Assembly (NCBI GenBank): GCA_900315165.1
Contig: OMXZ01000026.1
Coordinates: 1-25,434, forward strand
Reading direction: 5' to 3'
Length of the DNA stretch: 25,434 bases
Origin: an uncultured Actinomycetes bacterium
Lineage (GTDB): Bacteria; Actinomycetota; Coriobacteriia; Coriobacteriales; Atopobiaceae
Of this stretch, positions 12,188 through 24,940 are shown in pieces. The notes below the pieces were generated by a model. The model was given only the letters and a program-made list of their open reading frames with translations, was not told the DNA's origin and did not search any database. Made by a program: the position numbers and the translations under genes. The first letter of the stretch is position 1. Every line of letters starts with the position of its first letter.

Positions 12188-13219
12188 CTACGCGCTCGGT
12201 GCCGCGCTCACGTGGATGCCGTCGAGCTTGTTGTCGAACAGCTCCACGATGCCGTACTTGCGGTACTTCATCATGTAGCTGTCCAGGCTCTCCAGCTCGT
12301 CGGGCGAGAATACACGCGACGCCACGTGCTTGTCGAACTTAATAACCGCGCTTTTCTCAACCACCATGAAGTTGATGTCGCGCCCGGCCGCGCTCACTTG
12401 CTCGTAGTAGCCGGAAAGGCCGCTCTTGGTCGGGGAGGCCACGGCGCTGTAGGTGTAGCTGCCCTCGCTGCCGCTGCGCGTGTAGTAGGTCTTCGAGGAA
12501 TCGACCTCGGTGTCGCTCGTCAGCTCGTAGCTCGCCGCGCCCCTCTGGTATCCGAACTGGTCGTCGTCGCCGGAAAGCAGGTCGATGGCCGTGTAGAAGC
12601 GCACCTGCGACACCTCCACGATGCGGCTGAAGCGTTCCAGCACGCGGTTGGAGCGCGTGGGGTTGGCGTAGGAGAAGTCGTCAAGCACGCCCTTGAGCGT
12701 CGGCGTGATGAACAGGATGCGGCTGCCGGTTGACACCTGGCGCTCGTCCATCGTGCTCGTAACGGCGCGCAGGGCGGCAAGCACGTCGGTCGCTGCGGCC
12801 TCGGAGAGGTCTGCTGAATCCACTGTCACGCCCGCATGCGACGCGATCTTGGCGAAGGTGAAGGCGTCTGCCTCAGGTGCCACCTGGGTGCGCTGCAGCT
12901 CGGCTCCCGCCTCCACGAAGCAGTCCAGGACCCCGGCTTCCTCCACGTCCATGACGTCCGCGAACAGGCGGATGCCGCGATCGTAGTTGAAGGTCTTGGT
13001 TTCGAACTCGTAGGTGATGGCTCCGGTCTTGTAGCCCACGTTTCGGGTGTAGTCGCCAAGGCCCGTCACGGACATCTTCGGAATCATGATCTCCTTGGCG
13101 TTGTGCCCGGCCCTCACCATGCGCCGTCCTGAGTTGAGCACGTTGCTCACGCCCGCGCGCTGGTAGACCTCGTCGATGATGGAAGTGTAGTTCTTCGCGA
13201 ATGCGATGCTGTTAGGCAT
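12188..13219 (-). CDS. major capsid protein
   Basis: Length is 343 aa, with AGGAGG 8 nt upstream of the ATG. It follows the scaffold gene and has no TM helices. The call rests on position and composition. Confidence 0.65.
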   Translation of the reverse strand: MPNSIAFAKNYTSIIDEVYQRAGVSNVLNSGRRMVRAGHNAKEIMIPKMSVTGLGDYTRNVGYKTGAITYEFETKTFNYDRGIRLFADVMDVEEAGVLDCFVEAGAELQRTQVAPEADAFTFAKIASHAGVTVDSADLSEAAATDVLAALRAVTSTMDERQVSTGSRILFITPTLKGVLDDFSYANPTRSNRVLERFSRIVEVSQVRFYTAIDLLSGDDDQFGYQRGAASYELTSDTEVDSSKTYYTRSGSEGSYTYSAVASPTKSGLSGYYEQVSAAGRDINFMVVEKSAVIKFDKHVASRVFSPDELESLDSYMMKYRKYGIVELFDNKLDGIHVSAAPSA

Positions 13220-13756: not shown

Positions 13757-13912
13757 GCTGTACCGCCTTTCGTTTCCTTGGACGGCCAACAAGAAGGCAG
13801 CCCACCAACCTGCGATGAGGTTAGCGGGCTGTCACAAGGTGGCTAAGCCAGGTATCGGATAGGCTTTAATTACCGTTTTACAAACGTGTCTGAAATGTTG
13901 CTGATCATTGGG

Positions 13913-15166
13913 CTACTTCCAGACTCGATCATTGTAAGGAGTGGATTCAACCCCTTCGGCCTGCAGGTTTTTAACCATCCGGTCTAGCTTTCCTCGCCAC
14001 ATGGCTTTAAACCAGCGAGTGTCACCGAACCAGCGAACGAGTGTTGGGCTTATAGCATAATATGCCTTGATGAACGCACGGCCACGACGAGTCTCTGCGA
14101 GAGTGTAATCGCGGTAACGTCGAAGCGTCCATACCTGCGGGCAATCATATGAACCGTATACCGCGGTAGCAACATAACAGCCGCCGCTTTGAGGTGTGGG
14201 CCTTTCAGGTATGGTGTAGGTTGGGTCTATTTTCTTGATTGCCTCATGCCATTCCATGATTTTGTCTGTACGCCCCTGTTTGGCAGCAGGAGTGAGTGTA
14301 TATTCATGTACCCATGAACCGCTAGACAAGGTCCACGACCACGAATTGATGAGTTTGTCTTGTACGCCAATCAAATTCTTATATCTGACAACGTCTGCCT
14401 CATCGTCACCATCATCTAGACCAATTGCGACCTCTAGTAGATTAAGGACGCAATCACCACGCTCGATATATTTCTCCCAACTGTACTTCATGGGGTGATC
14501 TTCGCCCCAGAAATCTGGCATGATATGATCGTTCCATGCGTCCATCGCACTATTGTTGATCATTGTGGCGAGCTGTGCATTGATGTCATCTGTAGACGTT
14601 CCACATTTGATTAAGAGTGCAAGCGCGGATGTTTTAACTTCTACTAAGCAAGAAAGAATCGTCGTCGCCTGTTCTTTGTAGCCTGTTTTGCCGAAGTTTC
14701 CACAACACAATCGCATGAGAGCGAGAGACAGCTTGGTTGTCTCCTCGCTTACGGTCTTTTTAACATCTTCAGACTTGTTTTCAGGAGCGTTCTCTACTGC
14801 GTTTGAAAAACAGTTTATCGCCTCGCCTATGCGCAGATTTGCGATGGTCGACTGCCAGCCAGCCGCTTTTCCCTTCAGGAGCCAGGCTTCGTAATTCTTA
14901 TCGTCTACTTCCAGGACCCTGTTGCAGTATTCCTCCGCTTCCTTTTGATTGTCTGCATCGTAGGCTTTTTTAGCTATAGACAGGTAGTTTTTAATTCGGT
15001 CCGACCTATCAACCTTAACGGTTCCAGTAACCTCTACGGTTCCCTCGACCATCATCTTCTTAGCTTCTTCGATCGAATACTTGCAGCCACACGATTGGCA
15101 GACAAACACACCTCCGTCTTTCATAAGGTCTGTGCTTCCGCACATTTCACAGGTCAACTGCTTCAT
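13913..15166 (-). CDS. Zn-ribbon (CEMCGS...CQSCGC) / TPR-like / conserved Cys-containing C-terminal domain (GGCYVATAVYGSYDCPQVWTLRRYRD) protein; last gene of the candidate defence operon
   Basis: Length is 417 aa. The ATG overlaps the upstream TGA as ATGA. GC is low, about 45%. Confidence 0.65.
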   Translation of the reverse strand: MKQLTCEMCGSTDLMKDGGVFVCQSCGCKYSIEEAKKMMVEGTVEVTGTVKVDRSDRIKNYLSIAKKAYDADNQKEAEEYCNRVLEVDDKNYEAWLLKGKAAGWQSTIANLRIGEAINCFSNAVENAPENKSEDVKKTVSEETTKLSLALMRLCCGNFGKTGYKEQATTILSCLVEVKTSALALLIKCGTSTDDINAQLATMINNSAMDAWNDHIMPDFWGEDHPMKYSWEKYIERGDCVLNLLEVAIGLDDGDDEADVVRYKNLIGVQDKLINSWSWTLSSGSWVHEYTLTPAAKQGRTDKIMEWHEAIKKIDPTYTIPERPTPQSGGCYVATAVYGSYDCPQVWTLRRYRDYTLAETRRGRAFIKAYYAISPTLVRWFGDTRWFKAMWRGKLDRMVKNLQAEGVESTPYNDRVWK

Positions 15167-15651
15167 TGATGTCTTCCTTTCTGGTTGTTTGTCTTTCCGA
15201 CTTCCACCTCTCTATAGATGCGATAGATAGAATCCAGGTAGCCTACGGGCATTGCAATATAAGATGTTTGCCCGTATTTCCCGAAATCCCTAAGCTCGGC
15301 GTAAGCTTTTCCGTTTACCATGTAAATCTCTACTTGCCCATGTGCGATTGCATTTCTAACGTGGCGAACGAACTCCTGGCCCTCGGACCCGTCACAAGAG
15401 AAGAGCGCGAAGGGAGTGCGCTTCCTGTTTCTCTTCGTACGAATGACGGGATAGCTATCAGCATTTGTCTTCCTCTTGAAGGTTCTGTCACCAAAACCCT
15501 CCAAGCGTTTCAGCTTCTTTGTAAATCTCCCTTTGCTCACCGCGTCCCAAGGCGTACCCGTAAAACGAGCATCATCAAACAGCCAGTCATAAAGAGCAGG
15601 CGCGTCCTCTAACAGCTTCTTTTCGTCAACCTGCTGGAAGAAAGACCCCAT
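15163..15651 (-). CDS. small HEPN-like protein (Rx4-6H motif RHVRNAIAHG), putative RNase effector
   Basis: Length is 162 aa. The RN..AH motif is characteristic of Abi/HEPN families. It is tightly coupled to both neighbours. Confidence 0.55.
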   Translation of the reverse strand: MGSFFQQVDEKKLLEDAPALYDWLFDDARFTGTPWDAVSKGRFTKKLKRLEGFGDRTFKRKTNADSYPVIRTKRNRKRTPFALFSCDGSEGQEFVRHVRNAIAHGQVEIYMVNGKAYAELRDFGKYGQTSYIAMPVGYLDSIYRIYREVEVGKTNNQKGRHQ

Positions 15652-15652
15652 C

Positions 15653-16321
15653 CTATTTCGACCCCTTTAAGACCATGCTTCTTTCGTCGATTAATCGGGA
15701 AAGCTCTCTCAGGCGATCCACCTCTAGGTCGCTATCAGCTTCAATAGCGCTTATTTGATCGCTGATCATCGCGTCGAGCTCGACAACTGCAGAAGTGCTT
15801 CGCTGGTCAGCAAAGCGCACCTTCTCAATAATCTCGTAAATCAACTTGCCGGATCCGTCGCTTGCGTCTACGGCAACGCTCAGGCGATTCAAACGCAAGA
15901 GCGCATCGCTCATGGCATTCGTTTCGTTCGAGACGTCTTGATCGACCTTGTTCGCATAATCCATGGCCTTGTCAGCGCCGATAGTGCAGGCGCAGCATAC
16001 TGCCAACAGCAGTATGCCGACAATGGCTAAGACAGCGATGCTGTCTGGCGCAATAAGGCAGATTGCCAGTCCGACAACCATTTGAACGACAAGGCATATC
16101 GCGGCGATTGCAAGCCTCGGATATGACCTGAACAGCCCCTCGGCACCAGGCTCGCGACGAGAAAGGCTTACTGCCAGGATCGATGCCTGCAAGACAGCGA
16201 ATAAGAGCGCGAGCCAAGTGGTGGTGTCGCAAACAGTCCCGATGACAAGTACGGCGGTGTACGCCACGACTAGGACCACGATGATGAGTAGTGAGGTGGC
16301 TTTGCCTTTCGCGCTTGCCAT
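15653..16321 (-). CDS. membrane protein with 4 N-terminal TM helices and a C-terminal coiled-coil domain
   Basis: Length is 222 aa. AGGAGG overlaps the SPFH stop codon. Hydrophobic segments are clear in the sequence. Confidence 0.6.
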   Translation of the reverse strand: MASAKGKATSLLIIVVLVVAYTAVLVIGTVCDTTTWLALLFAVLQASILAVSLSRREPGAEGLFRSYPRLAIAAICLVVQMVVGLAICLIAPDSIAVLAIVGILLLAVCCACTIGADKAMDYANKVDQDVSNETNAMSDALLRLNRLSVAVDASDGSGKLIYEIIEKVRFADQRSTSAVVELDAMISDQISAIEADSDLEVDRLRELSRLIDERSMVLKGSK

Positions 16322-16327
16322 ACGTTG

Positions 16328-17464
16328 CTACCTCCTTGTCCCGCATTCAGGGCAGAACTTCTCGGAAGGCTGGAACGGCCTGCCGCATTCGGAGCAGAAC
16401 TTCGCAACGGCGCCTGATGATGGATTTCCTTCCGATTCCGTTGCTTCTGGTTTAGGAACACCGCCTGGGCCAGCCGCTAGGTTAACCGTCCCCATGGCGT
16501 CCGACATCGCGCCGCCGACCATGTTGCCGACCGGCCCGCCAACGCCGGCAATCATGCCGAGGCCGATGCCCATGTTCAAGAATTCCCCGACGCCCTCGTT
16601 TGCAGCTACCTTTTCGGCCACATCGAAACCGCGCTCCTGCTGGTACGTGTAGCCCTCTATGCGACGTTTGTCCGCCGTGGCCGTAGCCTCGATGACCGTC
16701 TTCTTAGCCTCGGTCTCTTGGTTGATGACACCTACCTGCTGTTCGATTTGCGCCTCCCTTACATCGGCATACTGCCGGAAGTAGAGCTCGCGAAAACGCT
16801 CGTATATGGGGTCGCCCTCCGGTCGTATGACGGTGGTCACGAGGAACTGGGTCAGCTCGATGCCATACTCAGCAAAATCGGGACGCAACCGGTCCTTCAC
16901 GTCATCGGACAGCTCGCCAAGATGGGCATCCAGCTCGAATATGCTCAGCTTCTGCTGCTGTATCGCCTGGACCAAAGCGGCTTTGACCCTCGTCTGGAGG
17001 AACGCCTTGAAGTACGCGATCAGTTTGTCTTGGGAGAGAATCGCCTCGGTCCCCACGATCTTGACGAGGAGTTTCTTCGCTTCGCGCACGGCGAGCGCCA
17101 TCTCGCCCGAGACCCCGATGGAGAGGGGGAACCCGAATTCGGGCTCCATATACTGCACTTTGGAATTGGTGCCCCAGGCGATGCCCATCTGCTCCGTGAG
17201 GTTGATGAAGTAGACCTCGGCATGGAACGGCGACACGCCACCACTGGGGAGGTTGACAATCTTGTTCACGAGCGGGAGATTCTGGGTCTCGAGCGTGTGG
17301 CGTCCGGGACCGAACAGGTCGAGAGCCTGTCCGTTCAGGAAGAATATCGCCTCCTGCGACTCATGGACGATGAGCTGGGAAGCGGTGTTGAAGTCCTCGC
17401 TTGGATGCTTCCAGACGAATGTGCGGTTGTCGCCCTCATACTTGATGACGTCTATGATGCTCAT
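16328..17464 (-). CDS. SPFH/Band-7 domain protein with Gly/Met-rich linker and C-terminal double CxxC zinc ribbon (COG4260, B. subtilis YdjI-like)
   Basis: It is trimmed to the ATG at 17464 (MSIIDVIKYEGDNRTFVWKHP...). The 17494 start is a GTG. The N-terminal pattern and the C-terminus KFCSECG...KFCPECG match YdjI-type proteins. Confidence 0.8.
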   Translation of the reverse strand: MSIIDVIKYEGDNRTFVWKHPSEDFNTASQLIVHESQEAIFFLNGQALDLFGPGRHTLETQNLPLVNKIVNLPSGGVSPFHAEVYFINLTEQMGIAWGTNSKVQYMEPEFGFPLSIGVSGEMALAVREAKKLLVKIVGTEAILSQDKLIAYFKAFLQTRVKAALVQAIQQQKLSIFELDAHLGELSDDVKDRLRPDFAEYGIELTQFLVTTVIRPEGDPIYERFRELYFRQYADVREAQIEQQVGVINQETEAKKTVIEATATADKRRIEGYTYQQERGFDVAEKVAANEGVGEFLNMGIGLGMIAGVGGPVGNMVGGAMSDAMGTVNLAAGPGGVPKPEATESEGNPSSGAVAKFCSECGRPFQPSEKFCPECGTRR

Positions 17465-17480
17465 GTAAAGTAGGCCCCCA

Positions 17481-17620
17481 TCGAAAACGTACACGTTTTG
17501 GAGGGGCGAAAAACTTGGTCGGGCAGGGTTGCAGTTGGCCTATTTGCTGGGCATATGCAAAGGTCGCTAGCGTATAATGACCCACTAAGTGACAAAAGCA
17601 AAACGTGTAGTTTTTGGTGC
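17481..17620. promoter_or_regulatory. two about 24-bp imperfect inverted repeats (tcgAAAACGTacACGTTTTggagg at 17481-17504; gcAAAACGTGTAgtttttggtgc at 17598-17620) flanking a roughly 90-bp spacer that carries a perfect TATAAT (17573-17578) on the plus strand and a perfect TTGACA (complement of 17621-17626) on the minus strand
   Basis: Read directly. It lies between the SPFH operon start and the 3' end of the serine invertase gene. It is a candidate for hix-like recombination sites or repressor operators. Confidence 0.3.
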
Positions 17621-17658
17621 TGTCAAATTCTCCGCTTTACCTGCTAAGACGCCATTAT

Positions 17659-18273
17659 TCAGTCATTGCCATCATCGGTGGCATCTTCCTTGAGCCATCG
17701 ATCGAAGGTGCTTGCAGAAACCTTGAGTCGCGTGGCCGCCTCTTGCCTTGTCAGGTGCCCTCCGAGGTAGGATTCCTTCGTGCTCGTATAGCACGCCGGA
17801 CGCTTCTTTTTCGGTCTGCCGAATCGCACACCACGTGCCTGAGCTGCGGCGATGCCCTCCGCCTGCCGCTGCTTGATGTTCTCTCGCTCCATCTGGGCAA
17901 CGTAGGATAACAGTTGCAATACGATGTCCGAGATGAGCACGTTCGTCAGCCCGTCGCGGTGGTTGCGCGTGTCGAGCAGGGGCATGTCGAGAACAACTAT
18001 GGCAGCGCCGCGCTCCTTCGTGAGCAACCTCCACTGCTCCAAAATCTCATCGTAATTGCGCCCGAGTCTGTCGATGCTCTTGATGACGACCACGTCTTCT
18101 GGTCGGAGCGCTCTAAGGAGACGCTGGTATTCGGGACGTGCAAAGTCTTTGCCGCTCGCTTTGTCCATGAACACGTTATCCCGATTGACGCCGAACTCTG
18201 CAAGCGCGTCGAGTTGCCTGTCGAGGTTCTGGTCGCGCGTGGATACACGCGCATAGCCGTATACGCTGCCCAT
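17659..18273 (-). CDS. small serine recombinase, DNA invertase/resolvase type (Hin/Gin/Pin-like) with C-terminal HTH
   Basis: The N-terminus YGYARVSTRDQNLDRQ carries the catalytic Ser. Length is 204 aa, and the C-terminal HTH is RQEAATRLKVSASTFDRWL. Confidence 0.85.
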   Translation of the reverse strand: MGSVYGYARVSTRDQNLDRQLDALAEFGVNRDNVFMDKASGKDFARPEYQRLLRALRPEDVVVIKSIDRLGRNYDEILEQWRLLTKERGAAIVVLDMPLLDTRNHRDGLTNVLISDIVLQLLSYVAQMERENIKQRQAEGIAAAQARGVRFGRPKKKRPACYTSTKESYLGGHLTRQEAATRLKVSASTFDRWLKEDATDDGND

Positions 18274-18496
18274 ATGATTGCCTTTCTGCTAGGTTACCTT
18301 TGTCCAAGAAAGGCGATCAGTTGCAACATCTGGCTGTTTTTCATACCGCTCCATTTGCATCTCGTACCAGCTCCGATGCTGCATTGGCGCATTCCTCGAA
18401 CCTTAGAACTCGCAGCGTAGGCGGTGGTCACAAGCGGGAGTTTTGAAGAGCGGTCACAGCAGTTAATGCCTCTTTGCATGTTGCCGTAAGAGGCTC

Positions 18497-18525
18497 TTGA
18501 CTTCTTACGTGTAACGTCTTACTGT
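18497..18525 (+). promoter_or_regulatory. candidate promoter of the RHH-YfbU gene (TTGACT, 17-nt spacer, TACTGT) with an ACGTGTAACGT motif in the spacer (operator-like)
   Basis: Read directly. The AGGAAGG RBS follows at 18553-18559 and the ATG at 18565. Confidence 0.35.
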
Positions 18526-18564
18526 ATGACACGACAAGTATTGCACATACGAAAGGAAGGCTTC

Positions 18565-19284
18565 ATGCCAACCGTGTCAATCAGAGTAAGCGACGAGCTC
18601 AAGTCTCGGCTCGACACGCTTGCGCAGGAAAGCGAGAGCACGCTGTCGGGTGTCATCGTCGAAGCGCTCAACTCCATTACCGGACTCGGCCGCGAGGACT
18701 ATCCCGAGGAGACGGCGCCCTACACCATCAACAACGCGAACCGACTCATCCTTCGCAACACCGAGCTGCTGCTCGCGCACTGCTCGGACCTTGACGAGGA
18801 CGAGCGCGAGTCCCATGCGAAGAACGTCACAATCCTTGAGGAGGGCTTCACGGGCGAGTATCACCACGTCTTCGCCGCGCTGCGCCCGGAGATTCCCAAC
18901 GCGCGCTGCGACGAGCTCTTCGACATCCTCGACATGTTCCGTGTGCTCAGGGCGTCATACAACAAGCTCCCAGACGACGAAAAGGTGCAGATCGAAGAAC
19001 GCGACATCTCGTTTCGCGGCTTCGACTACAGTGACGACGAGGAGACGGCCCTTCCCGGTTACGTCGAGTACCTGTTCGCCGACGACCGCTACACCGAGCT
19101 CGCCGAACCGCTTTCCCGCTTCTCTGACGGCGGCAACTCTCACCACCGCAACCTCGACATCTACCGCCGGATGCTGCGCTGCTTCAACCAGCTGTGGCGC
19201 AAGCACATCATCAGCTTCGACCTGCTAAGCCTCGACGAGATCAAGCAGGTCGTGTCCGCCGCCCCCTACAATTCCGGCTATTAG
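18565..19284 (+). CDS. fusion protein: N-terminal ribbon-helix-helix (CopG-like) DNA-binding domain plus C-terminal YfbU (UPF0304) family domain
   Basis: It is trimmed to the ATG at 18565 with an AGGAAGG RBS. The N-terminus VSIRVSDELKSRLDTLA has the RHH signature. The C-terminus (NNANRLILRN...ERDISFRGFDYSDDEE...YRRMLRCFNQLW...LSLDEIKQVVSA) appears collinear with E. coli YfbU, which is recalled from memory. Confidence 0.65.
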   Translation: MPTVSIRVSDELKSRLDTLAQESESTLSGVIVEALNSITGLGREDYPEETAPYTINNANRLILRNTELLLAHCSDLDEDERESHAKNVTILEEGFTGEYHHVFAALRPEIPNARCDELFDILDMFRVLRASYNKLPDDEKVQIEERDISFRGFDYSDDEETALPGYVEYLFADDRYTELAEPLSRFSDGGNSHHRNLDIYRRMLRCFNQLWRKHIISFDLLSLDEIKQVVSAAPYNSGY

Positions 19285-19296
19285 GAGGCGATCGAA

Positions 19297-20298
19297 ATGG
19301 CAGGCAACGCCAATCTGGCCCAGGCGAAAGCAGCGCACAAGAGGCCGATGCTCAGCGTGAGCCAGCAGATTGAGCGCCTGAAGGAGAAAGGCCTGACGTA
19401 CGACCTGTGCGACGAGGCCCAGGCTGCCGACATCCTCGCGAAGAAGAACAACTACCTACGCATAACCTCGTACCGAAAGCTATACGAGCGTCAGATGGAA
19501 GGCCCCAACGTCGGCAAGTACGTCAACCTCGATTTCGGCGACCTCGTGGCGATTTCGTCACTCGACAGGCAGCTGCGCGAGGCTTTCCTCACGATGACAA
19601 TCGACGTCGAGCATTTCGCCAAGTTGAAGGTGCTCTCGCAGCTCGAGAAGGAGGGCGAAGACGGCTACGCAATCGTCACGGACTTCTACGCAAGCCTGAA
19701 CCATGCAGGGCGCAACGCCATCCAAGGCGCCATGAAGGTTCGCGGCGGCGAGGGCGAGCGTCACGACGCGTACGCCGGGGACCTCATAGCCCATCACCTG
19801 CAAGACATGCCGGTCTGGGTGTTCCTGGAGGTTATCGACTTCGGGACGTTCGTCGACTTCTACCTGTTCTGCGCAGGCCGATGGCACAACGACGCAATGC
19901 TGCAAGAGCACTACGCGCTCAAGAGCGTCAAGGCGCTGCGAAACGCCACGGCACATAACCATTGCATTCTGAACGGTTTCACGAGGGCCGAGGCACGCGC
20001 AGGGTACACCACGCCGCAAGCCATCACCGACTCGCTGAATGCGGCGGGCATGCCAAGGACGAAGGCCAGGCGCGCCAAGCTCTCCAACCTCCGCATCGCC
20101 CAAATGGCAGCAACCCTGTACTGCCTGAGCACGCTCTGCACGAGCGAGTCCGCCATGGCGCGGCATGCCCGGAGACTCGCCGCGGTCCATGCCGCATACG
20201 AGGCCCATATTGACCGTTACCGCCTGAACAGCTCGTTTGTGTCGTTCTTCGACTTCCTGTTCCGTCTCGTTGACATCTGGGTGCCATGCGGGACATAA
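19297..20298 (+). CDS. abortive infection protein, Abi_2 (AbiD/AbiF-like) HEPN family
   Basis: The N-terminus has the typical motif KRPMLSVSQQIERLKEKGLTYD...NNYLRITSY. The HEPN motif LRNATAHNHCIL is present. Length is 333 aa. Confidence 0.8.
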   Translation: MAGNANLAQAKAAHKRPMLSVSQQIERLKEKGLTYDLCDEAQAADILAKKNNYLRITSYRKLYERQMEGPNVGKYVNLDFGDLVAISSLDRQLREAFLTMTIDVEHFAKLKVLSQLEKEGEDGYAIVTDFYASLNHAGRNAIQGAMKVRGGEGERHDAYAGDLIAHHLQDMPVWVFLEVIDFGTFVDFYLFCAGRWHNDAMLQEHYALKSVKALRNATAHNHCILNGFTRAEARAGYTTPQAITDSLNAAGMPRTKARRAKLSNLRIAQMAATLYCLSTLCTSESAMARHARRLAAVHAAYEAHIDRYRLNSSFVSFFDFLFRLVDIWVPCGT

Positions 20299-20310
20299 TG
20301 GCATCACATG

Positions 20311-21145: not shown

Positions 21146-22630
21146 CTATTCGGTGCCATTGCGCATGCCGACGCTCCCGACGCCCACCTCGGAGGCGCGA
21201 GAACGAGCGACGGCCTCCTCTTCTCCGTACCACTTGGCGCGGTACTCCCAGGCAGCCATGGTGACACCAACCTCGCGCATGTCCTGCTCCTTCTCGGCGG
21301 CGGTGTCCTGGATGATGCTGTCGTCATACTGCACGCGCACGGAACCCTCCTCGGGGATCTGCTCGCCGAACCCGCGCGACACTGCCATGACGGCGCGCGC
21401 GATGCCCGCGATGGCCCCCTCCAGGCTGTTCTCATGCCGGCGGATGTTGCGCATCAGGGCCGAATTGTCCGAGCTCACCTCGGTAGCCGTCTTGACGTAC
21501 CCGCGCGAGTCGTCCATGTCGAAGTAGTTGATGCCGAAGCCGGTGAGGTCGCCGAGCATCTGCAGGGCCACGCGGAACGCCTCGATCTGCCCGCTGGTTC
21601 TAAGCGCAGGCGCGAACTCCTGGATGGTGTCCTCCGTGCTCATGACCTTGCGGAAGACGGTGCAGTCCTGCTTGCCGAACGGGATGGTGACGTTCTTATT
21701 CCCGTCCTGCTCGCGGTCGAAAAGGACATCCGACAAGAACACCCTCATCTTGCTCAGGTCGATCTCGTTGATGAGAGCGTCGAAGGTGAGGTCCACGGCC
21801 TGCACCGCATCCACCGCATCCGCGAAGACGCTCTGGCCATAGGGCGACATATCCACGCGAGTGTTTGTGACCGCCGGCTTGACGATGCCGAAGGTGGGGA
21901 AAGGGCAGCCCGTATCATAGATCGGGAGGATGCCCACCGGCGCGAGCTCGTTGCCCTCGTGGTCGAAGCACACGGTGACGATCCTATAGGTCTCCTCGCT
22001 TTCATTGGTGAGAAGACCTTCCGCGCATTCAGGTGAAGGTGTGGAAGGTGAAGAAGAGTCAGGCGAGAAGACCATGCCGCCCTTGAGGTGCATCTGCAGC
22101 TGGTCCACGGCCTTGCCACGGTAGAAGGCACGCGTGACGAAGGCGCATTCGCTGATGCCGTCCTCGTCCCAGCTCAGGGGAATGACCATGCGAGCGTCAT
22201 AGTGGCGGATGCGAACCTTCCTCTTGCCCAGGTCGATCCACAACGCCCAGGCACCGGTGCCGAGCCCGAAGGCACGTACCACGGTGGCCTGCGCCGCGTT
22301 CATGAAGTTCGTGGAAGAGAAGAACGAGTTGATCCAGTCGGTGGCCTTCTGGTTCTCGCAGACGACCTTCACTTACTCGTTGAGGAGAAGGGATCCCCAC
22401 TCCTTGCACACGCGCATAGCCGGGTGAATGCTCCTACGGTGAACCGCATACACGCGCCCCATACCGTCTTTGTCCCTGTAATCGTAGAATTCCCCGCGCG
22501 CGCTCATCCAGTCATCCCACGAGCGGATCCACGGCTCCATGTCATCCAGGGGAAGAACAAACCCGAGCTTGCGCAGATAGTCCTTAACATGCTCCGGCAC
22601 CCAGTATTCGTCGAGACCATTAGCGCCCAT
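21146..22630 (-). pseudogene. phage portal protein gene (SPP1 gp6-like family) interrupted by an in-frame TAA at 22373-22375
   Basis: Track ORFs 22373..22630 (85 aa) and 21146..22372 (408 aa) are in the same frame and separated by a single TAA. Combined length is about 494 aa. The portal-like segment is VKTATEVSSDNSALMRNIRRHENSLEGAIAGIARAV. A strong GGAGGTGACGC RBS lies before 22630. Position between terminase and scaffold fits. Confidence 0.6.
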
Positions 22631-23650: not shown

Positions 23651-24940
23651 CTAACCTCGCAATACGTCGTCCATCATGGCATAGCGAACAGCGTCAATGC
23701 TGTGATCGTTGCCATCCGGGATCTCGTCGATCCAGTTGCCCTCCTTGTCCTTCTCGAACTCCTTCAAGGTGAATTCGGAGAAGGTCAAGGGGCACCGCTC
23801 TGGGTCAATCACGATCTCGCGCAGCCCTGCCAGCCATTCGTAAGACAAGCGCCTCATCCTGGCCTTCCTGGCCGCATGCACGCGGATGCCGAGCTCGCGT
23901 CTCCACACGTTCATCTGCACTTTGCTGTCCGGCGTGTCGTCGCAGTAGACAATCTGGTCGTGAAAGTACGCCTCCGCGCCCTGCTCGTCTGGGAAGGTGA
24001 GAGAATCGACCACGATCTTGCCCGTCTCCGCCGGCATCATCTTGTTCGCCGAGTGCTCCTCGAAGATGAGAAGGCGTCGCGCGTCAGGCTCCCAGGCACA
24101 GCGGACAAAGCGCCAGGGATCCGGGAACCAGCCCCAGTCCACGCCATTGCGAATGCGTTGGAAGGTGCGAATGCGAGAGTCGGAGAGCTTCGCCTCGTGC
24201 ACGTTGTCGAAGACGGCGCCGCCGGTCCCGGTGATCTCTCCCAGATACTCCCAACGCCAGGCCTGCTCGTTCGTGTCGCGCAGGTACTCCGCCTCCTCGA
24301 CGAACGGCGCTCCCAGCCAGTCGGGGTGCGTCTCGATCACATCGAGATAAGAGCTACCGCGCACAAGGGTGTCATCACGCCTCACACGTTCCAGGCGCTC
24401 CACGTTCACCCAGCTCCACATCGTCTTCGGCGGGTTGTAGGAATAGAAGATCCAGAAGCGGTCGCCGCCACGGCGCAGAGAATTCAGAATCGAGCGAACC
24501 GCCTCCACGCCCTCGAACTGGTCCAGCTCCTCGAACCACACGACAGAGCAATAGCCCTTGGTGAACTTCACGCCCTTGAGCTTGAGCGGGTCGTCCGCAC
24601 CGCGGAACACGATGCGCTGCCCGGTAGGGGTGTAGGTGATCTCCATGGGAGAAACGCGGCAGCGGAACACGCCCTCCAGGCCAAGCACCTCGATGGCCCA
24701 CTGTATCTGCTGGTACACCGAGTCACGCAGGGTGTTGGAGAAGCGCCTCACCACCACCGCGTTGGCCTTCGGGTTGGCGATGATGAGAAGTACGATCGCA
24801 ATGCTGATGAAGGAGGACTTGGTCGAGCCGCGCCCGCCCGGCAGCCAGTAGTGCGTGTGGCCGTGGGCCATCACGTCGCCAAGCACCGGGTGGAAGCGCG
24901 GGATGACGAAGTCGGAGACGTTAGTCGCCATTCGCGTCAC
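23651..24940 (-). CDS. terL: terminase large subunit (PBSX/XtmB-type)
   Basis: Walker A HYWLPGGRGSTKSSF. Length is 429 aa, with a C-terminal nuclease-type region. It overlaps the terS 3' end. Confidence 0.85.
   Translation of the reverse strand: MTRMATNVSDFVIPRFHPVLGDVMAHGHTHYWLPGGRGSTKSSFISIAIVLLIIANPKANAVVVRRFSNTLRDSVYQQIQWAIEVLGLEGVFRCRVSPMEITYTPTGQRIVFRGADDPLKLKGVKFTKGYCSVVWFEELDQFEGVEAVRSILNSLRRGGDRFWIFYSYNPPKTMWSWVNVERLERVRRDDTLVRGSSYLDVIETHPDWLGAPFVEEAEYLRDTNEQAWRWEYLGEITGTGGAVFDNVHEAKLSDSRIRTFQRIRNGVDWGWFPDPWRFVRCAWEPDARRLLIFEEHSANKMMPAETGKIVVDSLTFPDEQGAEAYFHDQIVYCDDTPDSKVQMNVWRRELGIRVHAARKARMRRLSYEWLAGLREIVIDPERCPLTFSEFTLKEFEKDKEGNWIDEIPDGNDHSIDAVRYAMMDDVLRG

Follow-up and report, generated by a model that had tools for sequence, protein, structure and literature searches.

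What does a small serine recombinase gene do when it lies between an AbiD-like gene and a HEPN-like operon on a prophage? The question is raised by contig OMXZ01000026.1, a stretch of 25,434 nt from an uncultured member of the Atopobiaceae, the whole of which was analyzed and is called the window here. Directly past the 3′ end of the recombinase gene there are two short palindromic sites, and beyond them a minus-strand operon of four genes that begins with a gene for an SPFH protein. The arrangement argued for a cis-acting phase-variation switch, in which the recombinase inverts a 116-bp promoter segment and thereby turns the operon ON or OFF. The probability of this reading is put at roughly 80%. 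The parts of the switch, in the order of the window, are the following.

17482–17501, unstranded: site S1, distal to the recombinase gene and adjoining the SPFH gene, CGAAAACGT-AC-ACGTTTTGG, crossover dinucleotide at 17491–17492.
17491–17608, unstranded: invertible segment, 116 bp from centre to centre, with the promoter here towards the recombinase gene, which is OFF for the operon.
17543–17549, plus strand: TTTGCTG block, 23–24 nt upstream of the -10 hexamer, shared by elements of both orientations when these are aligned by promoter direction.
17573–17578, plus strand: -10 hexamer TATAAT, the predicted mobile promoter, which would read through S2 into the recombinase 3′ end in antisense.
17598–17617, unstranded: site S2, proximal, 40 nt from the recombinase stop codon, GCAAAACGT-GT-AGTTTTTGG, crossover dinucleotide at 17607–17608.
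17659–18273, minus strand: small serine recombinase (invertase) of 204 aa, Pfam Resolvase PF00239 (E = 1.6e-34, residues 4–149).

S1 and S2 were 20-bp near-palindromes located directly past the recombinase 3′ end. They shared the core CAAAACGTGTA in inverted orientation and formed an inverted-repeat pair (I2) of 17 nt with 88% complementarity. Their centres, AC in S1 and GT in S2, were reverse complements of each other at the distance of 116 bp. An initial annotation had described two dyad-symmetric sites with a shared inverted core and reverse-complementary AC and GT centres, and this was confirmed on the sequence, as was the closeness of the operon start codon to the first site (ATG at 17464, 16 nt before S1). 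All 12 positions specified by the family consensus AAAANGT-NN-ACNTTTT were matched in S1. In the window, three half-sites out of four agreed with this consensus; the most degenerate was the outer half of S2, which was AAAAACT rather than AAAACGT. The 16-mer site pattern, with up to 3 mismatches allowed, occurred at only two places in the 25.4-kb window, namely S1 and S2, and this number of matches was not reached in any of 100 shuffles. A T-rich motif (AATTTGACA, TTTTGA or TTTTGG) was observed 4–8 nt outside the proximal site only, at 17621–17632 in the window and also in loci L036, L115, L116, L119, and L129; it looked like an additional half-site and may serve accessory binding.

A third related motif had been proposed at 18505–18517, on the other side of the recombinase gene. 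The string was present there, and the site model gave it no more than 7 of 12, a background value that was reached by about one quarter of 60-nt windows. It was not found in the relatives, and neither the site model nor the pattern scan of the window gave a third site at the borders of the low-GC cassette that carries these genes. Thus, it was dismissed as a recombination site. The inversion of a ~1-kb segment including the recombinase gene, which the initial annotation had offered as an alternative, was rejected as well, because the motif was at background level and not conserved, and because the recombinase and the first downstream gene were co-directional in every switch locus having downstream sequence.

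The sites belonged to a family that was widespread among the relatives of the recombinase. A site pair was counted when it matched AAAANGT-NN-ACNTTTT, had reverse-complementary centres and was 70–300 bp apart. Such a pair followed the 3′ end of the recombinase gene directly in 47 of 104 homologue loci, compared with 2 of 613 control windows of the same loci, and it was found in all 14 Coriobacteriia genome loci (L034–L049) that had enough downstream sequence. A homologous S2-type site occupied the same position after the stop codon in the relatives. Relatives in Senegalimassilia, Olsenella, Eggerthellaceae, and Collinsella placed the host in the Coriobacteriia. The pair was missing from L139 (a Collinsella aerofaciens record, 65% identical) and from the P0113 set (C. 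tanakaei, 73%), and therefore not every homologue has the switch. Only the recombinase-adjoining pair was found in the stretches of the relatives (up to ~3 kb per side), and one pair in the 25-kb window. Among distant Firmicutes homologues, an inverted repeat was found at the same place in 20 of 54 loci vs. 23 of 162 control positions; the viral-contig relatives L003–L033 were too distant and showed no recognisable sites. Two Enterococcus plasmid homologues (47–48% identical) were compared as gene maps only.

The centre dinucleotides covaried between the two sites. Most pairs were AC/GT; AG/CT was found in Gordonibacter L048 and in L104, GT/AC in L067 and L089, and AT/AT in L060. This is expected of a crossover dinucleotide that fixes the inverted orientation. 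A palindromic centre (GT-AT-AC) was observed in the Firmicutes relatives L060, L066, and L085; it would leave the orientation unfixed and should allow deletion besides inversion. The centre-to-centre spacing in 22 elements fell into clusters of 114–118 and 125–127 bp, which are one helical turn apart, with further values of 107, 157, and 180 bp and an outlier of 141 bp. A helical phasing of the sites is suggestive only, since the values cluster through shared ancestry and are not independent.

Inversion itself was observed in a sister element, P0062, whose recombinase shared 77% identity with that of the window and whose first cargo gene also encoded an SPFH protein, in a chromosomal context. 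This element was present in ten contigs, which came from different samples and assemblers. Its 109-bp core (139 bp with the shared half-sites) was the exact reverse complement in five of the ten contigs (L149, L151, L152, L155, and L156), and in these flipped contigs TATAAT pointed towards the SPFH gene. Eight of the nine other contigs differed from the reference contig by 0–1 base over ~3 kb of flanks; contig L157 was identical upstream and out of register downstream, with a split SPFH gene. The gene calls next to the element formed two sets (198/128 aa and 206/131 aa), and each set occurred with both orientations. This pattern favors recurrent switching, even though the flanks as sequenced were practically identical. 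All orientation counts refer to assembled contigs, and assemblies give the majority orientation only.

A second sister element, P0059, had a recombinase with 76% identity and an operon of 379, 221, and 162 aa in the same layout as in the window. Its promoter pointed towards the SPFH gene in all eight complete contigs. Two further contigs (58x and 23x coverage) stopped at ...AAAACGTACACGTTTTG, inside the site, which is the last base common to both orientations; an assembly graph branches there if both orientations are present. The core of the window aligned with the reverse complement of the P0059 core (L177) at 70 of 102 positions with a score of 35.5, compared with a score of -10 in the same orientation and at most 9.5 in 500 shuffles. 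By this alignment, the segment of the window is homologous to one that faces the opposite way. Contig breaks were also found elsewhere. Genome contigs stopped inside the proximal site in L057, L059, and L066, and contig ends within 300 bp of the recombinase match were found downstream in 12 cases vs. upstream in three. In L076 (760–1037), from Synergistaceae, the contig passed the segment and then doubled back on the reverse complement of the recombinase 3′ end, so that a perfect inverted repeat of >100 bp resulted. Such a fold-back is the kind of assembly expected when both orientations are present. Four other elements (P0001, P0002, P0021, and P0090) showed a single orientation across 27 contigs.

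Two cases of inserted DNA were observed in the segment. An IS110-family transposase gene interrupted it in L126 (3112–4500), one of the 27 contigs of single orientation, where the insertion sequence occupied the place of the distal site. In all 14 contigs of P0056, the sequence after the -10 box was replaced by an apparent repeat end, and the contigs stopped there (L141–L147, ~110–240 bp past the stop codon). These breaks were considered as orientation heterogeneity and rejected as such; an inserted repeat was found instead.

The comparison of homologous loci thus yielded the inverted arrangement that the initial annotation had pointed to, exact in P0062 and as a homologous, opposite-facing segment in P0059. 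Its proposal that a ~110-bp segment is an invertible promoter module of the adjacent recombinase was supported by these two sister elements. The adjacent recombinase is probably the enzyme responsible for the inversion.

The position of the -10 box was conserved with respect to the sites. The TATAAT of the window was 28–29 nt from the exit site on the S2 side. Of 17 independent Coriobacteriia elements, 16 had a -10-like hexamer, mostly TATAAT, at 26–30 nt before the exit-site centre, irrespective of the direction in which it faced; only in L048 could no -10 hexamer be placed. It faced the recombinase gene in 12 elements (including the window, L034–L036, L038, L039, the L043 group, L115, L116, L119, and L129), the cargo in L040, L041, L045, and L177, and both ways in the P0062 element. 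In the all-against-all alignment of segments across species, one near-identical group alone aligned; orienting the segments by the -10 box worked instead, and segments oriented by promoter aligned across elements and shared this box. The same promoter module was thus attached to either site, which matches the prediction of inversion. The TTTGCTG block was present in the window, L116, L148/149, and L041, with near-matches in L115, L129, and L177. Its distance from the -10 box is too large for a canonical -35, and it could bind a regulator or a DNA-bending protein.

The spacer between the sites had been said to carry a TATAAT on one strand and a TTGACA on the other. The former was indeed inside the spacer, and it is predicted to be an active promoter. 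The latter was located at 17626–17621 on the minus strand, 4 nt outside S2. As the -35 of a hybrid promoter, TTGACA was rejected by eye, since no usable -10 followed it in either orientation.

Palindromes of this kind might also be operators, at which the helix-turn-helix of the recombinase or another regulator would repress the operon without any DNA rearrangement; each site is indeed a near-perfect palindrome close to a start codon. However, inversion was seen directly between homologous sites in P0062, the centre dinucleotides covaried as reverse complements, and the -10 box kept a fixed distance from either site. Operators of this type are scarcely conceivable here and are refuted as the sole explanation. 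Site binding that also represses transcription is compatible with the inversion switch.

The recombinase gene was located outside the invertible segment and was transcribed towards it. The gene is real, as the initial annotation had it, by its Pfam Resolvase match (E = 1.6e-34). The catalytic motifs of serine recombinases were kept in the protein: in alignments with gamma-delta resolvase and Sin, YARVSTRDQ fell on the catalytic-serine motif and SIDRLGRN on the DRLGR motif of these two proteins. At the C-terminus, HTH_23/28/29 matched residues 169–195 weakly (E = 0.002–0.006, under the Pfam cut-offs). The nearest solved structures were Sin/Bin3 (2r0q, E = 4.9e-28) and gamma-delta resolvase (E = 3.8e-22), and Gin (4m6f, 3uj3) was a weaker match (E = 5e-15). 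The label “Hin/Gin-type” was therefore imprecise. The protein aligned over its full length with the NCBIfam Mpi profile NF009949 (residues 4–198 vs. profile positions 2–197 of 203), and it scored 60.6 bits with a cut-off of 272; membership in the Mpi equivalog was ruled out by this score.

The closeness to resolvases (Sin, gamma-delta, and Tn3) raises another explanation, namely that the sites are res-, six-, or att-like and function in resolution or cassette mobility, and that the recombinase excises, integrates or resolves the low-GC cassette. The cassette was found in different genomic backgrounds, and a role in mobilising defence genes has been proposed for small serine recombinases that lie next to them (PMC13552941), both of which agree with such a role. 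The layout of the sites spoke against it. The reverse-complementary centres make them inverted sites, which lead to inversion and not to deletion; both were located to the same side of the recombinase gene, at a distance of 116 bp, with only a predicted promoter between them; there was no third site at the cassette borders; and the sister element showed an exact inversion instead of a deletion. Resolution or mobility is therefore considered very improbable as the function of these sites.

Several observations weigh against the proposed switch and its role at this locus. All 11 counted copies of the window element (the window, L001, L002, and L158–L165) had the promoter towards the recombinase gene, that is, OFF, and the closest variants (L115–L118, recombinase 92–96% identical) also showed this single orientation. 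The outer half of S2 lacked an otherwise conserved G (AAAAACT-AC instead of AAAACGT-AC), as did that of L034, L039, L115, and L116, all of which were OFF. The promoter scan found no -35/-10 pair in the segment that scored as a sigma-70 promoter, and no canonical -35. A loop of 116 bp implies strong DNA bending for synapsis, as the persistence length of DNA is ~150 bp and thus longer than the loop. As to the role of the cargo in defence, PADLOC gave no match for any of the four operon proteins.

The degenerate half-site together with the uniform OFF state indicated that this lineage may flip rarely or never. The switch could then be a fossil in the window prophage, descended from a working inverton and now locked OFF by the degenerate proximal half-site or by low recombinase activity, with the operon silent or expressed by read-through from the recombinase gene alone. 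The contrast between 11 of 11 OFF copies here and five of ten in P0062 is in favor of this, as is the loss of the conserved G. Some copies also suggested decay, with a truncated recombinase of 141 aa in L159 and disrupted cargo genes in L160 and L161. In most copies, however, the recombinase open reading frame was intact with its catalytic motifs, and three of the four half-sites were consensus. An ON subpopulation of 1–10% would be invisible in assemblies, which record the majority state, and sixteen further copies of the element were outside the count of 11. A locked or very slow switch is regarded as unlikely, and the window's own copy presumably still switches. In its flipped state, the window element is expected to have the junctions ...CCAAAAACTACACGTTTTGGAGGGG... 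and ...AAAAGCAAAACGTGTACGTTTTCGATG..., with the junction strings CCAAAAACTACACGTTTTGGAGGGGCG and GACAAAAGCAAAACGTGTACGTTTTCGATGG. A 21-mer common to both orientations had 0 matches in IMG/VR and one chance match in the JGI metagenomes (L114, unrelated AT-rich DNA). Signs of decay were also seen more widely, as altered or missing downstream genes in L160 and L161 and as the split SPFH gene of L157 in P0062.

According to the proposed switch, the recombinase would bind S1 and S2, pair them and carry out double-strand exchange at the 2-bp centres. Since the centres are in inverted orientation, the product would be an inversion of the 116-bp segment. In the ON state, the promoter would read through S1 into the minus-strand operon (SPFH, membrane, HEPN-like, and TPR/CFI-box proteins); TATAAT would then lie on the minus strand at ~17526–17521, 57 nt upstream of the SPFH ATG. 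In the OFF state, it would read through S2 into the recombinase 3′ end in antisense, and an antisense feedback on the recombinase is possible in this state. A terminator-like hairpin was observed at 17662–17683 on the plus strand, antisense to the recombinase and ~85 nt downstream of the OFF-facing promoter. A short antisense RNA could thus be made in the OFF state. With a phase-variable cassette in a prophage, only a subpopulation of lysogens would express the HEPN-type module, which is probably costly.

The genes that the predicted promoter would control, and the divergent gene pair of the same cassette, were as follows.

16328–17464, minus strand: SPFH protein with a C-terminal zinc ribbon, first cargo gene, 378 aa (Pfam Band_7_1, E = 1.8e-40; zinc-ribbon residues 354–377).
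15653–16321, minus strand: second cargo gene, predicted by eye to be membrane-spanning, 222 aa, several hydrophobic stretches in the N-terminal half.
15163–15651, minus strand: third cargo gene, HEPN-like candidate RNase effector, 162 aa, with an RNAIAH (Rx4H) motif.
13913–15166, minus strand: fourth cargo gene, TPR-like region and CFI-box-CTERM domain, 417 aa (NCBIfam NF041770, E = 3.2e-21; TPR matches weak).
18526–20298, plus strand: divergent pair of a YfbU-domain gene (Pfam YfbU, E = 1.6e-34) and an Abi_2/AbiD-like gene (Abi_2, E = 2.2e-21; PADLOC AbiD, E = 7.9e-21).

An SPFH gene also followed the switch in L039, L115, L116, L148, and L177. PADLOC, PHROGs, and NCBIfam assigned no function to the SPFH or the membrane protein, and the latter (222 aa) had no family match above threshold. 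The RNAIAH motif of the third protein was invariant in eight homologues, and seven of eight family members matched Pfam PF18736 (HEPN pEK499_p136; best E = 3.1e-5); the window protein of 162 aa itself scored 15 bits with a cut-off of 26.6. The initial annotation had named these genes an SPFH-HEPN defence operon. The SPFH-HEPN part of this label is plausible from the motif and the PF18736 matches, and the defence part did not gain a PADLOC match. A possible role of the cargo in defence or abortive infection is suggested by the HEPN-like motif, by the proximity of the AbiD-like gene and by the location in a prophage.

The prophage was recognised by genes for the terminase large subunit (23651–24940, minus strand), the portal (21146–22372, minus strand) and the major head protein (12188–13219, minus strand), together with head-tail adaptors and a tail-fibre-like protein. 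The cassette (13900–20300) was inserted between the portal and the scaffold/major-head genes and had a G+C content of 47–60%, compared with 64–74% in the flanks. It comprised YfbU and Abi_2 on the plus strand and the recombinase, the switch and the four-gene operon on the minus strand; the YfbU/Abi_2 pair was in the same cassette and not downstream of the switch. Identical cassettes were found in the gut-metagenome contigs L001 and L002 with different neighbouring phage genes. In L116, the switch with SPFH cargo adjoined an integrase gene and an HTH_17 gene, and in L148 (LysR) and L177 (GntR) its context was apparently chromosomal. These varied surroundings indicated that the cassette moves between backgrounds. 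An Abi_2 gene (AbiD/F-like; 19297–20298 in the window) was divergent upstream of the recombinase also in L141–L143, which is otherwise a different element, and so the recombinase-Abi_2 neighbourhood recurs.

Other cargo was found behind the same switch, namely an FtsK-like ATPase and, by eye, helicase-like proteins and surface proteins. In L034, L038, L040, L043, L045, and L050, the first open reading frame past the distal site was NusG-like by eye (RWYL[IV]xVxEG) and was followed by a sugar-transferase-like gene. It is possible, though rather doubtful, that the recombinase with its ~115-bp 3′ promoter switch is a portable phase-variation cassette that was repeatedly fused to costly cargo (HEPN/SPFH, helicase-like proteins, FtsK-like ATPases, and capsule-like loci led by a NusG-like gene) in gut Coriobacteriia and in part of the Clostridia, also within structural operons of prophages. 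In that case, a cis switch would explain in general why defence islands are marked by small serine recombinases (PMC13552941), and antisense transcription in the OFF state would feed back on the switching rate. With the proposed switch, the window would be a concrete prophage case in which an accessory, toxin-like HEPN operon is phase-varied and part of the lysogens pay the cost. The switch also provides a testable mechanism for the placement of small serine recombinases beside antiphage genes. For this apparently undescribed family, which occurs in abundant yet little-studied gut Actinomycetota and Clostridia, the analysis defined the consensus of the sites (AAAANGT-NN-ACNTTTT), their spacing and the geometry of the promoter, and such loci can thus be found from sequence alone. 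In addition, a loop of 116 bp is unusually tight for a serine recombinase substrate and could inform synapse architecture.

The kind of system is known; the family, the prophage head-gene setting and the HEPN/SPFH cargo appear to be new examples. The family was not described in the inverton catalogues that were compared, in which serine recombinases and prophages are unmentioned. In function, a promoter inverted by a serine recombinase resembles the Hin system and, most of all, Mpi. In the capsule loci of Bacteroides fragilis, the serine recombinase Mpi flips short, promoter-only invertons between inverted repeats and turns the loci ON and OFF, acting in trans on many distant loci. Both systems have a small serine recombinase and a short promoter-only segment between inverted repeats, and the NusG-like first cargo gene (by eye) in other Coriobacteriia members parallels UpxY at the Bacteroides capsule loci. 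In contrast to Mpi, each recombinase here has its own single switch directly 3′, the segment of 116 bp is shorter, the host is one of the Actinomycetota and the setting is a prophage.

The invertases Hin, Gin, Cin, and Pin (Salmonella H segment, phages Mu and P1, e14) are serine recombinases that are often phage-borne. Their sites are imperfect palindromes in inverted orientation, each with an asymmetric crossover core of 2 bp and an A-tract in the half-sites; Hin moves a promoter, and the phage invertases switch tail-fibre genes. S1 and S2 share with them the two imperfect palindromes, the asymmetric 2-bp core, the A-tract and the inverted orientation. However, the segment here was 116 bp and contained no gene, whereas theirs are 1–4 kb; the protein was closer to Sin and gamma-delta resolvase; and the promoter would serve an accessory operon instead of tail-fibre genes. 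A dependence on Fis and an enhancer is unlikely at a loop size of 116 bp. Sin and beta of Gram-positive plasmids work on compact sites with the DNA-bending protein HU/Hbsu. Their natural role is resolution between direct repeats with accessory subsites, and beta also inverts. By analogy, Sin/beta may be the most plausible mechanistic model for a 116-bp loop, with the differences that the natural product here would be inversion and that no accessory subsite was identified in the window.

For the cargo, the nearest comparison was the SPFH protein YdjI of B. subtilis, which is encoded with its membrane partners YdjG/H in the pspA operon (PMC8581546). The SPFH gene of the window likewise adjoined a gene for a membrane-like protein, which suggests a membrane-associated complex. 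The window operon differed in that PspA was absent and HEPN-like and TPR/CFI-box proteins were added, and the comparison carries no claim of orthology. For the locus as a whole, small serine recombinases have recently been described as marks of antiphage defence loci (RADS; Andersen et al. 2026, PMC13552941); their role was left open and inversion was only speculated upon, and in the founding example the recombinase was co-transcribed with the defence gene (PMC13552941). The recombinase studied here resembles RADS in its location between an AbiD-like gene and a HEPN-like operon on a mobile element, and it differs in that the window has a concrete candidate for an invertible promoter between the recombinase and its cargo.

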